Assembly (NCBI GenBank): GCA_051884295.1
Contig: JBJEVK010000048.1
Location: 3,820 to 67,819 of the forward strand
Reading direction: 5' to 3'
Length of the DNA stretch: 64,000 bases
DNA from: Akkermansia sp.
GTDB lineage: Bacteria; Verrucomicrobiota; Verrucomicrobiia; Verrucomicrobiales; Akkermansiaceae
The translations under genes and the position numbers were made by a program. Shown one piece after another: positions 22,282 through 47,249 of the stretch (within the stretch, counting starts at the first letter, position 1; each line of letters begins with the position of its first letter). Below the pieces are notes generated by a model that searched no databases, was not told the DNA's origin, and saw nothing but the letters and a program-made list of their open reading frames with translations.

Positions 22282-22639
22282 GCGGCAAAAACAACGCGCG
22301 CAGCGACCGCTCATTGCAAATTCCTCACTCTGGATGATCAGCATGTTTCGAGCGGTATCAACAAAGGGTATCTGCGCGGGAAACTGCCCAGCGGCTCGGG
22401 CTTCCACTGTTGTCGCGTTTACAGATCGGCGGGTTACCCGCCTCAATACTCAGTAGGAAAGCCTTACAACCCTTGAATAGGCACTGTGTTGCGGTAGTGT
22501 CCCGATTATTGACTTATTCATAATTTATTTATTGTCTGTATACTACAACGAGCGATCCAATGCTCGATGAGTTCTCTTTGACATTCTGAAAACCTTCGAT
22601 ACCCGGCAGATTTGAAATTACACCGTGGAGGGTGGATAT

Positions 22640-22785
22640 AGCATTTTGAATGCTGTAGCAAGACTATTTATGCAAGACGCAGCTAATGAGCGTGTTGTGT
22701 TTTTTCTAATTGACAAAGTTCGTCGGCAATCATTTATATCTCGCTGGCTATCTGCAGACTGTACCATAACAGCATTCAAAATGCT
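22640..22785. promoter_or_regulatory. Putative invertible promoter segment A
   Basis: Perfect 17-bp inverted repeat AGCATTTTGAATGCTGT (22640-22656) / ACAGCATTCAAAATGCT (22769-22785) around 112 bp; TATAAT abuts the right repeat (22786-22791). Confidence 0.75.
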
Positions 22786-22801
22786 TATAATGCCTTTTGT
22801 T

Positions 22802-23770
22802 ATGCTGCAAATTTCTACGGAGGAATCTCGGTTGATTAACATCGGACGATTATGCGGGGTGTTGGGGGTGGTGGCTATTCACTGTCGCCTTAATTCTCCC
22901 GTTATTGTCTCTCAAGTGCCCGAAGAGTTGTTGGAGCAGGTGCATTCGTGGTATTGTCTGCTTACTTTTTTCCCGGCATTGCCGATGTTGTTCATTTTGT
23001 CCGGCTACCTGTTCTTCCGCGATGTGGGGGAGGTTTATGGGTGGAAGGAGAATTATTGGATGAAGCTGAAGCGGCGTGGATTGTCGCTTGGCCTTTTTTT
23101 TGTTTTTTGGACCGTGGGTGGTTTTTTGTTTAATGTGTTCATTAGGAAAAATATGCCGGAAGGGGTGACGATTGAGAGGTTTTTATACTCCGGAATGGGT
23201 ATGTGGTATATACGCTCTTTGATGTGTTTTTCCCTCCTGTCTCCGTTGTATTATTTTATCGTCCGCTATCTGAAGCACCTGACTCCCGTCGTTTGCGTAC
23301 TCCTCTTTCCTGTGATACCTATTAACTTTGTGTGGTTTAATGTATACATCCTGTTGGGAGCCTACCTGGCTTATCACGGTATTTCGCTGATGAAAATCGC
23401 TTCGCTGTTGGATTGGAGGATGGCGGTGATAGCTTATTTTGGGATGATGGTTGCTTCTGCCTTTTGGGGGATTCATGTTCCGTGTCTCGTTACCATATTT
23501 GTCGCGTTGGCTGTTTGCCGGGGTATTCTGTTGTGTGTTCCGATACCGACGAGCTTCGTTGCCGGTTCGACATTTATCTATGTGGCTCATTTTTACATTG
23601 TCGGCGGAATGAAAAAAGGTCTTTTCACCTTGTTGCCTCATGAGTTTCCTTATTATCTTCTGAATATGTTGGTGAATTTCACGGTGACACCGATGATTTG
23701 TATTGCTGTATATATTGTTATCCGTCGTTTCCCACGTGTGTGTATGCTGATGACCGGGGGGCGGGGATAA
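22802..23770 (+). CDS. Acyltransferase family 3 (O-acetyltransferase-like) membrane protein, AT-rich
   Basis: N-terminal INIGRLCGVLGVVAIH, LFILSGYLF, MWYIRSL, STFIYVAH, about 10 hydrophobic segments. The ORF-track start at 22625 runs through the invertible segment, so the start is placed at MLQIS. Confidence 0.85.
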   Translation: MLQISTEESRLINIGRLCGVLGVVAIHCRLNSPVIVSQVPEELLEQVHSWYCLLTFFPALPMLFILSGYLFFRDVGEVYGWKENYWMKLKRRGLSLGLFFVFWTVGGFLFNVFIRKNMPEGVTIERFLYSGMGMWYIRSLMCFSLLSPLYYFIVRYLKHLTPVVCVLLFPVIPINFVWFNVYILLGAYLAYHGISLMKIASLLDWRMAVIAYFGMMVASAFWGIHVPCLVTIFVALAVCRGILLCVPIPTSFVAGSTFIYVAHFYIVGGMKKGLFTLLPHEFPYYLLNMLVNFTVTPMICIAVYIVIRRFPRVCMLMTGGRG

Positions 23771-41808: not shown

Positions 41809-42516
41809 ATGGTGCACCCCATTGACATCACCCCGCTGACCTTCCTCGACTACCCGAAGAAGGCCGCCTGCATCCTGTGGTACACGGGCTGCAACCTGCG
41901 CTGCCCCTACTGCTACAACCCCGAGCTCGTGCTGGGGCACGGCGGGGGGCAGGACGAAATGTCCTTCCTGCGCGAGCGGGCGGGCTTTCTGGATGCCGTG
42001 GTGCTCAGCGGGGGCGAGTGCACCCTCAACCCCGACATCGCGGAACTCTGCCGCGCCATCAAGCGCGAAACAGGGCTGCTCATCAAGATCGACACCAACG
42101 GCTCCAACCCGCAGGTCGTCCGCGCCCTGGCCGAGGAGCAGCTCATCGACTACGTGGCGCTGGACAACAAAATGCCCGGCAACCGCAGCTGGCACCTGCC
42201 CGGCGGCGCTCTCCTCTTCGACCGCTTCCGCGCCACCCTCAAGGTGCTGCAGCACTACGCCCTGCCGCACGAAGTGCGCACCACCGTCCACCCCGGCCTG
42301 CTGGACGAGGCCGACATTCTCCGCATGATTCGCGAGACCAAGTCCTTCGGCTACACGGGCAACTACTACCTGCAATTCTTCTTCGATGCCGGCAAGGGCA
42401 AAACCCTGGGCAATCTGCCGCCCCCCTCGCGCCGCTACGACCGCGGCCTGCTCGACGACATGAGCCCCTTGCCCATCGTCTACCGCAACTTCCCCGAGGA
42501 TCGCTACCGCTATTAA
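41809..42516 (+). CDS. nrdG: Anaerobic RNR activating radical SAM protein
   Basis: GCNLRCPYCYN, VVLSGGE, IKIDTNGS, EVRTT; adjacent to nrdD. Confidence 0.93.
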   Translation: MVHPIDITPLTFLDYPKKAACILWYTGCNLRCPYCYNPELVLGHGGGQDEMSFLRERAGFLDAVVLSGGECTLNPDIAELCRAIKRETGLLIKIDTNGSNPQVVRALAEEQLIDYVALDNKMPGNRSWHLPGGALLFDRFRATLKVLQHYALPHEVRTTVHPGLLDEADILRMIRETKSFGYTGNYYLQFFFDAGKGKTLGNLPPPSRRYDRGLLDDMSPLPIVYRNFPEDRYRY

Positions 42517-42640
42517 CGGCGGCTCCCTCTTGCCTCAGCCTTGCGAGAGCGCCTCGTTATCCGTTGATCAGGCGCCCTATCAGCTCGCCCGCTCTCGGGG
42601 TGAGCGTCCACCGTTGGATGAGCTCGTTCACAGGCGCAGC

Positions 42641-42817
42641 TACAGCCTTGTTCATGCTGTGTCAAGGTGGAATCGTGTATCATTTTGTAAAAATGTTAGC
42701 GTTGAATGCTTTGCGGTGAACAGGCATGGGACGGCAGCTTGCGTGCGTCGAGCTGTTCAAGCTGACTTAGTGATTGATTTTCAATGAACTCATCAACACA
42801 GCATGAACAATGCTGTA
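42641..42817. promoter_or_regulatory. Putative invertible promoter segment B
   Basis: 21/22-bp inverted repeat TACAGCCTTGTTCATGCTGTGT (42641-42662) / ACACAGCATGAACAATGCTGTA (42796-42817) around 133 bp. Confidence 0.75.
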
Positions 42818-42886
42818 TACGTGAGTTGTCAGCCGATGGAGTTCCTGCTCCGATGAGGCGATGACATTCTCACCCCAATTAAGGCT

Positions 42887-45800
42887 ATGAAACTCCATTT
42901 ACCTAAACTGTTGTTGCTGTCATTGTTGAGTATTTACGCCGATGCGGCCACTGCAAATAAGCTTGTTGTTCCCTCCGCAATCATCTCGGTTGAGGCCGAT
43001 CAACAAAAAACTCTCTCCTCCGATGAGGCGCCCGGCTCATTTTACACCTTGGCAAAGGATGGCAGCGGAACCCTCACGGTGACAGGAGACGTGACGCGAA
43101 ACGGCGCTTTATATGTGCGCGAGGGAACGGTTCTCGTCGGAGACGGGGGACAGACGACAAGCAATCTGAAGCTGAAACCGTCCGGTTCGGGATCTACCGG
43201 CCGTTACACAGCGCTGGGCGTTGCCGGCCGGGATGCCCTGATGATTTTTGATGGCGGAAACTATACGTCCGGCACCGAATCCGCGCACTATGTCGGCGGG
43301 TTGGATGGCAACGGGCGCTTGGAGATTCGCAATGGTTCGACCGTTGATATGGGATCCGGTTTGCGGTTTTCCATCGGTGATCACTCCTTGGAGTATGTCG
43401 AGTCACGGGCGGAAAGCAATGGGGGTTATTGGTCCACCATGAATGATCTGACCACGGCCGGAGTCGGCGATGAGAAAATTCTCGAGAACCGCTATGTCGG
43501 CACCTATAGTCAGGCGGAGAACGGGAGCGGGCAGACCTTCGGCCGAGGGGATATCGTGGTCAGCGGTGGATCCACCTTCACGGTAAGCTGCGGAGATTTC
43601 TTGATGTCGGAAGCTTCACTGACCGCTGAGGGCGCCGGCACCATGGTGCAGATCCAAGGAGCCGCCGATTTGGGTAAGGGCGAAAACTCGACCAGCCGCA
43701 TTGCGGTGCTTGGCGGAGCCACTATGGAGTTTAATCTCAAGGGTTTCGATGCGAACACTGGCGTGAGCTCTTCATTCTACCTCACGATTCAGGGGGAGGG
43801 GTCGGTGATGAGACATGTGTCCGGAGACTACAAAGCTGAGTTTGGTAGGTTTTTGCATTCTACTTCCGTTATCGAGGTGTGCGAGGGCGGGAAGCTGCTT
43901 CTGGAGAATGTGATGTCACGGTTCGGCCTCTATTCCGACATAGGTTCACGTGTCTCGCTTTCTGTGGATGCTCTATCTCAGATGACAGCCAGTGATATGG
44001 AGGTGGGCTACGGGGCGGTGGTTGACAACAAGGGGCAAATGACGGTGCAGAGCCTCATCCAAACAGCCGGGCAGATCACCAACAGCGGTACGATGGAGAT
44101 TCTCGGAACCCTTTCCGTGAAGGAGAATGGCAAGCTGACGGTGTCGGAATCCGGTATCCTGAAGGTGGCCGGAGCGCTGACAAACGCGGGAACGATTCAA
44201 CTGTACGGACAGAGTGAGCTCGCAGGCACATTGACGAATAGCGGTACACTGCAACTATACAAGGGGTTGGATGCCTCCTCTCTGGATGGTGATGGCGAAA
44301 CCGAGATTTGCATCAACCGTGGCACACGCGATTTCATCGGCACCGGGTCGGCGGTGCTTTCGCTCAATACTCTGTCGGATGACCAAACGGTGAGCGTCAC
44401 CATTGACCTGAAAGATCCGTTAAGCCTCATCGGCAAGAGGTATGACTTTTTGGAGGTCGGCGGGGTGAAGAAAGCCCTTAACTGCAACGACATCAAAGCT
44501 GAGCATGCTGAGAATGCCACCTTTGACTGGGATAATTATAATGGGCTGCTGTCCTACGACGGCGGCAAGCTCGGCATGGGGTCCACCGACTTTGACAGCG
44601 CTACCAATACCCTGACCAACTGCGGCTTCAAATACTGGGTGGATGCGGTGAATCAAAAAAACATCGGCGGCGTGAACTACGCCCCCGGGATGGGGTATAT
44701 TGACATCGGAAACACCCCCGACGGTGAATATCGCTATGTGACCATTCCTTCGACCGATGGGAGCGGAAGCGTCATGAGCGTCTTCTCCCAAAATGTCAGC
44801 GCGGCGGGCGAGTACACCTGCGCTCTCGTCTTCGCGGGCATGGAGCAAAGTGACGGCACCTATACACCCGTGCAAGTCAACGGCACCATCCTCCTGCTCA
44901 ACCGGGAAACCACCCTGAGCGGCGACCCCAACAAGGAGTCCGTATTCGGTTTCGGTTTCGAGAGTGCGGGGAATGCGATTGGCACAAACGGTCTGCAGAA
45001 AGGCATGATCGACATTGCTCTGGTCAAGGATTCGGTGACCATGAAAGACCTGACGATGAATGTCGGCCAGCGTCTCGAAGTGGACGCCGGACAGTCGCTG
45101 ACGCTCACCAACACCATCCTCAACATCGGCGGCGGCGATGCCAAGGATTTGTCGACCATCACCGTCGGCGGTGCAACCCACCAACTGGGGAGCAGCGATG
45201 TTCTGAAGCTCGACAGCCAAAAAACGACCATCGCCGACGGCGCCACGCTGAAGCTGACGAACAGCACGCTGGCGGGCACCAAGCTGACGAACGGCAGCGG
45301 TGATATTCAGGTGGGCGCCGCCACCATCACCCTGAAGGACAGTAAGCTGGGCAGCAGCGATGCTGCGGCCATGAGCATCACGCTCACCGACAGCAGAGTC
45401 TCCGGCACGGGCTCGATGCACAAGGTGAGCATGAACGGCGGCAGCCTGACCATCGGCAACTCCCCCGGGCAGATGAGCATCGAGGGCGTGAGCGCCACCA
45501 ACAGCTCATGGTCTTTCTACTTCATCACCGATGCCCCGACCTGGAACCCGACCGGAGCCAACGACACGACGAACCCAACGACCGGCGCCTTCTCCCAGCT
45601 CAAGGCTCTGAGTGGCAACAGCGCCTCGGGCATCACCGTGAGCATCGTCTACGAAGATGCCTCCGGCGCGGCCAAGAGCAAGGAGGATTTTACCGCCACC
45701 CTCGGCGCGGGCTTCAGCGTCAAGCTCATTGACGGGGTGGAGAATTTGACGTTCAGCGGCAACAATGTCGTGGACAGAAACAGCCTGCCGACCCTGCGGG

Positions 45801-46831
45801 AGGGGCTGTTCTGGGACACCGACAGCCTCTTCCGCACCGGCTGCCTCTATGTCATCTCCCACGCCGACATCATGGTGGCCGATGCGGGGCGCCTGGCCAA
45901 CACCCTGGTGAGCGCGGCGGACACCACGGTGTTCTTCGGGCGCATGGCGCGCGAGCACTACAAGGATGCGCGCCGCCAGCGCGCCAATGTGTGGGCGGGC
46001 GGCTTCGGCACCTACCTCAACCACGCCGACGCGGGCGGCCGCAGCGGCTTTGAGTACAACACCCACGGCTACGCCATCGGCGCCGACACGGAACTCGCGG
46101 AGGGGCTGGTCGCGGGGCTGGGGCTCGGGCAGAGCTTCGGTAAGCACAAGCCCAACCGGGGCGATGCCTTCTACAACGCGGGCGAGATTGACCAGGACGG
46201 ACTGCTGGCCGCGCTCTACGCCGCCAAGGCCTTTGCCTGCGCCAAGAGCGATAACGAGCTACTGCTGGACGGCTATGTGGCCTACGGTCGCTACGACAAC
46301 AGCAGCACGCGCCGCAGCCTGTCCAACGGCAGCACGGCCCGGGCAGATTGGAAGGAGAATACGCTGGCGGCGGGCGCCACGCTGACGCGCCTCATCAAGC
46401 TGCAGGGCGGCGCGGAGCTGACCCCCTTTGTGGGGGCGGAATACCGTTGGGCAGACATGGAGGACGCGACGGAGCACAACCACTCGAGCATGCGCTACGA
46501 GGGCTCGGCCTACCAAAACCTGTCGCTGAGCGTGGGCATCGGCTGCCGCAAGAGCTACGCGCTGACGGCGGTGCAGAAGCTGACGCCCTATGCGAGCGTG
46601 GCCTATGTGGGCGATGCGCTGCGCGAGGACGGCGAGGTGACGGCGCACGGCTCTGCGGGCGAGGTGCTGCGCGAGAAGTCGGCGGCGCACGGGCGCCACG
46701 CGCTGCAGCTGAATGCGGGAGCGCTGTGGCAAATCACGGACGAGTGGGCAGCGCGCGCGGGCTACACGGGCGAGCTGCGCGAGGGCGCGGATGACCACAA
46801 CGTGAACCTGAGCGCCACCTACAGCTTCTGA
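42887..46831 (+). CDS. Autotransporter (type Va) with beta-helix passenger
   Basis: MKLHLPKLL signal, LAKDGSGTLTVTG passenger repeat, C-terminal barrel (NVWAGGFG...NLSATYSF). Confidence 0.9.
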   Translation: MKLHLPKLLLLSLLSIYADAATANKLVVPSAIISVEADQQKTLSSDEAPGSFYTLAKDGSGTLTVTGDVTRNGALYVREGTVLVGDGGQTTSNLKLKPSGSGSTGRYTALGVAGRDALMIFDGGNYTSGTESAHYVGGLDGNGRLEIRNGSTVDMGSGLRFSIGDHSLEYVESRAESNGGYWSTMNDLTTAGVGDEKILENRYVGTYSQAENGSGQTFGRGDIVVSGGSTFTVSCGDFLMSEASLTAEGAGTMVQIQGAADLGKGENSTSRIAVLGGATMEFNLKGFDANTGVSSSFYLTIQGEGSVMRHVSGDYKAEFGRFLHSTSVIEVCEGGKLLLENVMSRFGLYSDIGSRVSLSVDALSQMTASDMEVGYGAVVDNKGQMTVQSLIQTAGQITNSGTMEILGTLSVKENGKLTVSESGILKVAGALTNAGTIQLYGQSELAGTLTNSGTLQLYKGLDASSLDGDGETEICINRGTRDFIGTGSAVLSLNTLSDDQTVSVTIDLKDPLSLIGKRYDFLEVGGVKKALNCNDIKAEHAENATFDWDNYNGLLSYDGGKLGMGSTDFDSATNTLTNCGFKYWVDAVNQKNIGGVNYAPGMGYIDIGNTPDGEYRYVTIPSTDGSGSVMSVFSQNVSAAGEYTCALVFAGMEQSDGTYTPVQVNGTILLLNRETTLSGDPNKESVFGFGFESAGNAIGTNGLQKGMIDIALVKDSVTMKDLTMNVGQRLEVDAGQSLTLTNTILNIGGGDAKDLSTITVGGATHQLGSSDVLKLDSQKTTIADGATLKLTNSTLAGTKLTNGSGDIQVGAATITLKDSKLGSSDAAAMSITLTDSRVSGTGSMHKVSMNGGSLTIGNSPGQMSIEGVSATNSSWSFYFITDAPTWNPTGANDTTNPTTGAFSQLKALSGNSASGITVSIVYEDASGAAKSKEDFTATLGAGFSVKLIDGVENLTFSGNNVVDRNSLPTLREGLFWDTDSLFRTGCLYVISHADIMVADAGRLANTLVSAADTTVFFGRMAREHYKDARRQRANVWAGGFGTYLNHADAGGRSGFEYNTHGYAIGADTELAEGLVAGLGLGQSFGKHKPNRGDAFYNAGEIDQDGLLAALYAAKAFACAKSDNELLLDGYVAYGRYDNSSTRRSLSNGSTARADWKENTLAAGATLTRLIKLQGGAELTPFVGAEYRWADMEDATEHNHSSMRYEGSAYQNLSLSVGIGCRKSYALTAVQKLTPYASVAYVGDALREDGEVTAHGSAGEVLREKSAAHGRHALQLNAGALWQITDEWAARAGYTGELREGADDHNVNLSATYSF

Positions 46832-46859
46832 GGCATCGGCTCCGCTTCGGAACATCAGC

Positions 46860-46892
46860 CCCCGCAGCTGCTTCGGCAGCTGCGGGGTTTTT
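46860..46892 (+). terminator. Rho-independent terminator of the autotransporter
   Basis: CCCCGCAGCTGC-TTCG-GCAGCTGCGGGG-TTTTT. Confidence 0.9.
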
Positions 46893-47211
46893 GCTCGAAT
46901 TCCTCAGCTCTCTGAGCGAGTCTCATTTGGGTGTTTACAGAAACAAAAAAACAGGTTTTCGGGTGGCCGTGCCGGAGGCAGCTCATCCGCTGACCGATGG
47001 GAGGGCTATGTGAAGGGGCCATACTGGACATCCGGTCATGTATTCACAACGGAATGTCCGGAGTCTTTTTCTCGGGAGTAAGAATTCGTTGGGCGCATCA
47101 CTCCGGAGGAGCGTTTAGCTCATCTTCCGACATGTCGATAGGATGCCTTGTTCGTCTCAGAACGACGATTGCTACGTGGAAAATCGTCAGGGGGCTTGCT
47201 GCCGGGGTATG

Positions 47212-47249
47212 CAAAGGGGGAAGCGCCGTTTGCGGCGCTTCCCCCTTTG
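47212..47249 (-). terminator. 17-bp perfect hairpin terminator after the OMP-like gene
   Basis: CAAAGGGGGAAGCGCCG/CGGCGCTTCCCCCTTTG. Confidence 0.8.

Follow-up and report, generated by a model that had tools for sequence, protein, structure and literature searches.

The 64,000-nt stretch of DNA analysed here (the window) comprises positions 3820-67819 of contig C48 in a metagenome-assembled genome (MAG) of Akkermansia sp. (G000; 1.92 Mb, 116 contigs, 90% complete), and the element under study is a putative phase-variation switch lying directly upstream of a gene for a 1314-aa autotransporter. The element is bounded by an inverted repeat of 22 nt, with left arm TACAGCCTTGTTCATGCTGTGT at 42641-42662 and right arm ACACAGCATGAACAATGCTGTA at 42796-42817, which is 95% complementary and has 133 nt between its arms. 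The sole mismatch between the arms is at 42647, the inner 15 nt are perfect, and 69 nt separate the right arm from the ATG of the autotransporter open reading frame (ORF) at 42887. No other inverted repeat in the 64-kb window (arms of at least 18 nt, no more than 3 kb apart) exceeds 91% complementarity, and the 19-mer core of the arms, allowing up to three mismatches, occurs twice in the window as compared with no occurrence in 100 shuffles. The G+C content of the whole element is 45%, versus 64% for the genome. The features of the locus are as follows.

42641-42662: left arm, containing the 19-bp site ACAGCCTTGTTCATGCTGT at 42642-42660, which is divided into an outer half-site (42642-42648, carrying the mismatch, a C at 42647), the centre TGTTC (42649-42653) and an inner half-site (42654-42660).
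42660-42665, minus strand: putative -35 hexamer TTGACA, the last base of which is base 1 of the arm; it points left, away from the autotransporter.
42663-42795: predicted invertible segment of 133 bp, a sequence unique to this locus with no other copy in the genome.
42675-42697, minus strand: A/T-rich stretch upstream of the -35 hexamer, ACATTTTTACAAAATGATACACG on the minus strand, which may act like an UP element.
42796-42817: right arm, containing the 19-bp site ACAGCATGAACAATGCTGT at 42798-42816 with the centre GAACA at 42805-42809.
42799-42815: right-arm bases that would form the 17-nt promoter spacer in the ON state.
42816-42821, plus strand: putative fixed -10 hexamer TATACG, starting on the last base of the site and lacking the usual final T.
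42828-42886, plus strand: predicted 5' leader in the ON state, with a likely transcription start near 42828 and AAGG at 42881-42884 as the likely ribosome-binding site.
42887-46831, plus strand: autotransporter gene (1314 aa) with signal peptide MKLHLPKLLLLSLLSIYADAATA, passenger and PF03797 beta-barrel.
46860-46892, plus strand: intrinsic terminator of the autotransporter gene, a 12-bp stem followed by TTTTT.
42523-47235: 4.7-kb block comprising the switch, the autotransporter gene, the terminator and 340 bp, not found in the closest related species.

Both arms are themselves palindromic, with ACAGCAT-N5-ATGCTGT at 42642-42660 and at 42798-42816, and their centres are asymmetric, so that an inverted orientation of the two sites is distinguishable from a direct one only by the 5-nt centre and the outermost bases of the arms. 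A reading of the arms as RNA hairpins or terminators was rejected, as no T run is present. At the junction facing the gene the assembled sequence consists of TCAACA (42793-42798), a 17-nt spacer and TATACG (42816-42821). The reverse complement of 42660-42665 is TTGACA, and inversion of the segment would place this hexamer at the gene-facing junction, which in silico then reads TTGACA-CAGCATGAACAATGCTG-TATACG ahead of the autotransporter. In the assembled state TTGACA instead faces left toward TAGCTG, a poor -10 hexamer, and no gene lies there. Since the -35 box is directed away from the autotransporter, the locus is taken to be OFF. The first-pass annotation had proposed this arrangement, and its repeat coordinates, 133-bp spacing, 69-nt distance to the ATG and perfect 15-nt inner part were confirmed on recomputation; the two junctions it described, TCAACA-17-TATACG as assembled and TTGACA after inversion, can both be read directly from the sequence, and the OFF state that it assigned to the assembly holds because the -35 box faces away from the gene.

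The two sites of the autotransporter locus belong to a family dispersed through the genome. With up to two mismatches, ACAGCAT-N5-ATGCTGT occurs 64 times; 29 of the occurrences in the whole genome are exact, compared with none for the same pattern read backwards. These sites form at least 23 pairs (24 listed, 23 of them non-redundant), with partners 119-225 bp apart (119-157 bp in 22 of them). The interiors are each a unique sequence with a G+C content of 33-56%. The layout of the sites is 7-5-7, often 8-3-8. The 5-nt centres differ from locus to locus, and within each of the 23 pairs the centre of one partner is the reverse complement of the other's. Comparison of the 46 arms of the 23 switches reveals that the inner half-sites are nearly invariant over the 7-nt ACAGCAT, with position 8 variable, and that the outer half-sites are degenerate, 28 of 46 having at least one mismatch. 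The half-sites at the autotransporter locus fall inside this range: both inner halves are perfect over ACAGCAT and are followed by a G at position 8, as in 12 of the 46 inner halves, and the right outer half is perfect. The earlier placement of the single mismatch in the outer, non-exchanged half-site was right and fits the family, with its degenerate outer and nearly invariant inner halves. Sites of the ACAGCAT type were detected in 16 of 24 congeners and in none of 16 genomes from other families of the order. The outer half-sites, which lie in fixed DNA, were observed to drift often to ATGCTTA or ATGCTAT, sequences that build the -10 box, and the outer half-site thus seems to be a compromise between promoter function and recombinase binding.

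The placement of promoter elements is consistent throughout the family. Every one of the 23 pairs has cTTGCT or cTTGAC directly against the inside of an arm, with an A/T-rich run upstream of it, and in 22 of the 23 the TTG box is present at one end only; the A/T run upstream of the -35 box at the autotransporter locus has counterparts of the same kind in the sister elements. A TAnnnT starting at arm base 18 or 19 is present in 24 of 27 gene-facing flanks, as compared with 0 of 19 other flanks (Fisher p 4e-10). The -35 hexamer overlaps the arm by its last base (arm base 1), which leaves arm bases 2-18 as a spacer of 17 nt; a -10 hexamer that starts at arm base 18 shortens it to 16 nt. With a -35 box against the inner face of the arm and a -10 box just outside it, the recombination site is itself the promoter spacer. 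Judged from this layout, the moving segment is predicted to carry only the -35 half of the promoter and the fixed DNA the -10 half. As the -35 box moves and the -10 box stays, the ON or OFF state can be read from an assembly or a single read, and by this rule 13 elements are ON and 10 are OFF as assembled. The CGGATT-type elements of another Akkermansia species (G007) have the same layout with TTGAC beside the arm.

Inversion was observed directly in a sister element. The element at C25:26912-27075, upstream of a PEP-CTERM gene, has the ON orientation in the MAG, and in Logan contigs of two other sequencing runs its 126-bp interior is the exact reverse complement, with 0 mismatches and identical flanks; the contig of a third run breaks off 2 nt short of the arm. 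The runs that yielded Logan contigs of this strain are SRR30616813, -14, -24 and -25. The presence of this element in both orientations within the same strain indicates that the family flips here, and it does so although the outer halves of the element carry mismatches (AAAGCTGA and ACAGCTTT). Contigs of two runs break off within the arm of the C19 element, one after 10 nt and the other after 3 nt, the latter being precisely the point of divergence between the two possible orientations. In the MAG the sites also cluster near contig ends, 18 of 64 sites lying no more than 200 bp from an end versus 2.4% expected (p 1e-14). The contig pairs C4/C48 and C42/C43 were rejected as proof of mixed orientation: one 55-mer (the arm plus 26 nt of the interior), beside paralogous gene starts, terminates both C4 and C48, and C42 and C43 are related in the same way, which could equally reflect two paralogous loci; they were used only within the contig-end statistic. 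Inversion is also observed between species. At loci L065 and L125, where switches precede orthologous recombinase genes, the interiors match in reversed orientation with 88% identity over 154 nt and the flanks are co-linear, and at L080 and L097 a reversed interior matches with 75% identity over 132 nt, again with co-linear flanks. Comparison of 20 switch loci of congeners with this genome found hardly any orthologous DNA. At the orthologous, recombinase-adjacent switches L077, L080 and L097, the half-sites, interiors and flanks have been conserved from one species to another. Their central bases differ (TCCTT, TTCAT and TTTTA, respectively) yet always match between the arms of one element, indicating that the centres evolve in concert.

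No recombinase gene is present on contig C48, and an invertase for the autotransporter locus must therefore act in trans. The recombinases of the genome comprise two Xer-like proteins, two phage-type integrases (one of them broken), one 451-aa phage-type serine recombinase and three paralogous tyrosine recombinases, encoded on C70, C20 and C96, that share 37-48% identity with one another. The three paralogues give only weak Xer-like scores in NCBIfam, far under the cut-offs. Aligned with the two Xer-like proteins of the genome they retain Arg-I, Lys, Arg-II, His-III and Tyr, and the His-II position is occupied by Asp (PDxxRH). Of 20 congener switch loci fetched at random, 5 have a recombinase gene of the C70/C20/C96 family starting right next to the switch. 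The converse relation was examined at 80 recombinase loci (L046-L125) from many, mostly animal-gut, Akkermansia MAGs, 69 of the 80 having the full 500 bp upstream: in 45 of the 80 a perfect inverted-repeat pair of at least 13 bp, mostly recognisable as the GCATT-N3-AATGC type, ends 10-47 bp before the start, and both ON and OFF states occur. In species rich in CGGATT sites, the type of switch found in front of the gene (GCATT, GGATT or CGGATA) depends on the paralogue. The sites have the layout of tyrosine-recombinase substrates, with inverted half-sites surrounding a short asymmetric overlap, the predicted cleavage region, that is identical in the partner sites. The invertase is thus likely to be a member of a trans-acting, Akkermansia-specific family of tyrosine recombinases, with the C70, C20 and C96 paralogues as the candidates in this genome. 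A serine invertase of the Hin/Gin/Mpi kind was rejected, the only serine recombinase being the 451-aa protein of phage-integrase type; furthermore, the sites are 19 bp long with a centre of odd length, versus the even-length symmetry of serine-invertase sites, which have a 2-bp overlap.

At the C20 recombinase gene itself (C20:26600-26860, outside the window) the promoter consists of TTGACA followed by a degenerate site-like sequence, ATTGCATTCAGAATGCTGG, and a very degenerate partner with a matching centre (TCTGA) lies about 190 bp upstream, beside a divergent gene for a surface protein beginning MKLHLP. This promoter looks like a decayed switch that has become fixed ON for the recombinase.

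Akkermansia is known for a high density of invertons (PMC10028968). Those of A. muciniphila reportedly share a repeat motif and a promoter motif (Jiang et al. 2019, Science 363:181, as relayed in PMC13343947 and PMC11892184), and they flip in vivo (PMC11892184). One group of them, inverton group 138, contains 32 invertons and is enriched near PEP-CTERM genes; one of its members adjoins two autotransporter genes and shifts in orientation over mouse generations (PMC11892184). The cps1 inverton, with the motif CGGATT..AATCCG, is phase-variable (PMC13343947). The element described here resembles these in several respects. It occurs in the same genus, it belongs to a set of dozens per genome in which paired palindromes of the form xxxATT-N3-AATxxx surround intergenic segments (about 120-320 bp) upstream of genes for PEP-CTERM proteins and autotransporters, one arm has TTGAC next to it, and both orientations appear in sequencing data (here, those of the sister element). 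Short inverted repeats, an intergenic segment of 100-300 bp, an adjoining surface-protein gene and an apparent promoter element on the segment are all found at the locus. The layout is the same, but the letters differ: CAGCATT-N3-AATGCTG here versus CGGATT-N3-AATCCG, and pairs of the CGGATT-N3-AATCCG palindrome, which account for 62-71 sites in two complete congeners, are absent from this genome (0 sites). The autotransporter, too, differs in being without an orthologue in other species. On these sequence features the element is classed as a member of the known Akkermansia inverton class with a lineage-specific recognition sequence. In the published accounts of the A. muciniphila invertons we found no invertase named for the class, nor was the site described there as a promoter spacer. 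Invertases near invertons are stated to be generally not regulatable by them (PMC11892184); contrary to this statement, the recombinase genes with Asp in place of His appear to be regulatable by their adjoining switches.

Similarities to other systems extend to the mode of control. The capsule and surface-protein invertons of Bacteroides fragilis and B. thetaiotaomicron are likewise numerous, share one motif, are served in trans and generate combinatorial surface variation, but there the promoter lies wholly within the invertible segment, and the global enzyme Mpi is a small serine recombinase (the local invertases being tyrosine recombinases), whereas the enzymes associated with the present sites are tyrosine recombinases. 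In E. coli, the tyrosine recombinases FimB and FimE invert the short promoter segment fimS and thereby turn a surface structure ON or OFF. Unlike the present element, fimS is 314 bp long, carries a whole promoter, has 9-bp repeats and lies adjacent to its recombinase genes; the present element has a split promoter and 19-bp palindromic sites, and its enzyme would serve at least 24 loci in trans. The joining of a mobile, outward-facing -35 box to a resident -10 box at 17-bp spacing is also found in the hybrid promoters formed by insertion sequences, but those arise by transposition, whereas here the joining would be reversible and would proceed by programmed site-specific inversion.

Taken together, these comparisons support the interpretation of the locus as a structurally intact split-promoter inverton that is OFF as assembled and precedes a strain-specific autotransporter gene. 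The reading we favour, with a probability of roughly 0.78, is that of a phase-variation switch with a split-promoter design, belonging to the Akkermansia promoter-inverton class. The two inverted 19-bp sites with their matched centres TGTTC and GAACA would flank the 133-bp segment bearing the A/T-rich run and TTGACA, and the -10 hexamer TATACG, the leader and the autotransporter gene would stay fixed beyond the right-hand site. A trans-acting tyrosine recombinase would pair the two sites, exchange strands within the centre and turn the segment round. In the OFF state the -35 box would be directed left at TAGCTG, where there is no gene; in the ON state the right-hand site would become the 17-bp spacer of TTGACA-N17-TATACG, and the autotransporter would be transcribed from about 42828. 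The same recombinase family and site type would run at least 23 other switches in the genome, and as these precede surface genes the cell surface would vary combinatorially. That the autotransporter copy itself flips is expected from its membership in the family, and the hybrid promoter TTGACA-17-TATACG is predicted to fire.

Several observations weigh against this reading, and some of them favour the view that the element, a true family member by descent, now flips never or very rarely, with the autotransporter silent or otherwise driven. No flipped copy of the switch was detected in four assemblies from at least three samples: three Logan contigs, which come from three runs, match the MAG with 100% identity over 42517-42900, all four sequences are OFF, the Logan contigs cross the switch unbroken where the C19 and C25 elements show breaks or the other orientation, and 40-mers of the flipped junction were not found in the MAG. 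The left outer half-site has a C at position 6, found in just 2 of 46 outer halves. The -10 hexamer is weak, TATACG being without the final T that 24 of the 27 gene-facing flanks have; the caveat raised in the first-pass annotation on this point holds, as it is one of only three such gene-facing boxes, TATAAC before the paralogous C29 autotransporter gene being another. The scan of 42450-42950 revealed no terminator-like site, including between nrdG and the switch, and read-through from nrdDG, or another promoter, could consequently give expression independent of the switch. In addition, the flanks compared in the Fisher test were sorted by hand as gene-facing or other from ORF evidence, and the link between recombinase and site is a strong association, not proof of activity. 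On the other hand, both inner half-sites and both 5-nt centres of the element are perfect and matched, and mismatched outer halves occur in 28 of 46 cases across the family, including the demonstrably flipping C25 element. Contigs lose rare variants, so that an unbroken contig is no proof that the other orientation is absent, and uniformly OFF contigs limit the ON fraction without excluding the ON state; the C92 element is likewise uniform across contigs. On balance, a switch of this family that has ceased to flip, or flips very rarely, seems an unlikely description of the locus. Searches with the right arm and its flank gave no match in metagenome contigs, and the switch region had no match among plasmids.

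It would be more conventional for both the -35 and the -10 box to lie inside the 133-bp segment, the TTGACA/TATACG junction being a coincidence. This is the textbook arrangement of fimS and of the Bacteroides capsule switches, the segment is A/T-rich, and a promoter motif has been placed inside Akkermansia invertons by published analyses (PMC11892184). Nevertheless, the scan of 42450-42950 as assembled found no complete sigma-70-like promoter on either strand; the TTG box touches an arm in 23 of 23 elements, leaving no room for an internal -10 box; and TAnnnT lies outside the arm, on gene-facing flanks only. A complete internal promoter is thus very improbable. Least probable of all, and in our view scarcely credible, is that the repeats are not a switch but two operators, each palindromic, that a dimeric regulator would bind, or else the termini of a miniature inverted-repeat transposable element (MITE), as might be suggested by the palindromic nature of each arm and the dispersal of the motif through the genome. 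The asymmetric, locus-specific centres are always reverse-complementary within a pair, as strand exchange needs and operators do not; the interiors are unique to each locus, with no target-site duplications or flanking direct repeats of the kind expected of a MITE; and inversion has been observed directly, in the sister element and between species.

The protein controlled by the putative split-promoter switch has a hydrophobic N-terminus and a PF03797 autotransporter beta-domain at residues 1035-1294 (E 1e-39); no Pfam match was found in the passenger region. Its predicted layout of N-terminal signal peptide, passenger and C-terminal PF03797 beta-barrel is that of a type Va (classical) autotransporter. 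A search of genome contigs gave no relative, no orthologue was found among 30 congeners, and a look-up of the exact protein returned only two contigs, both already among the matching assemblies. In the closest species, in which nrdG is 93-95% identical, the homologue of the window from 47236 onwards begins about 36 bp after nrdG, identifying 42523-47235, which has a lower G+C content, as a 4.7-kb indel. The switch and the gene therefore appear to come and go as one unit. In that species all that stands between nrdG and the gene convergent with it downstream is a hairpin flanked on either side by T runs, which by eye resembles a bidirectional terminator.

The genes switched across the genome include many for PEP-CTERM proteins, two for autotransporters, two for Acyl_transf_3 proteins, and others for LicD, a sulfatase-family (EptA-like) membrane protein, a polysaccharide deacetylase and Sel1 proteins, all of which are predicted to have surface functions. 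The enzymes among them include those that add acyl, phosphocholine and phosphoethanolamine groups. Akkermansia is a health-associated gut commensal whose surface is what host and phages meet, and in this animal-gut species at least 24 surface genes would be run from one switch set. Searches by the published A. muciniphila motif would miss every switch in this genome. The gain at the autotransporter locus itself is modest, namely one more phase-variable adhesin-like gene, caught OFF; the chief points of interest are the variant site, the half-promoter rule and the association with a recombinase, which points to a directly testable candidate enzyme family.

A more tentative idea, which we consider possible and would not favour, is that the switches form a self-wired network. 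Bound recombinase would sit on every ON promoter that it serves, the site doubling as spacer; the recombinase genes themselves usually lie behind a switch of their own site type; and divergence among the paralogues seems to have gone hand in hand with that of their sites (GCATT, GGATT and GGATA types). If so, Akkermansia would possess several orthogonal, self-regulating sets of invertase and site, the switching rate would be coupled to the expression of the switched genes, and the clade with Asp in place of His would be the hitherto unnamed invertase of the class as a whole.

The window holds a second member of the family, the sister element inverton A.

22638-22787: inverton A, with sites ATAGCATTTTGAATGCTGT and ACAGCATTCAAAATGCTTA, assembled OFF.

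Its -35 box, TTGCTA, faces left, and the fixed -10 hexamer TATAAT lies at 22786-22791, before a gene for an Acyl_transf_3 O-acyltransferase. The perfect TATAAT overlaps the first ATG of this gene and the leader would be very short; given this overlap, the usable start is probably the ATG at 22802. Outside the window, two tandem switches at C29:17571-17712 and 17851-17992 of the same genome precede a gene for a paralogous 1320-aa autotransporter, and the second has a TTGCC box at both inner ends and may thus be ON either way round. The switch at C22:11076-11319, like some others, lies between two divergent paralogous PEP-CTERM genes and has the -10 hexamer TACAAT on both flanks; with the same -10 box on either side, a single -35 box would toggle between two genes instead of turning one ON or OFF.

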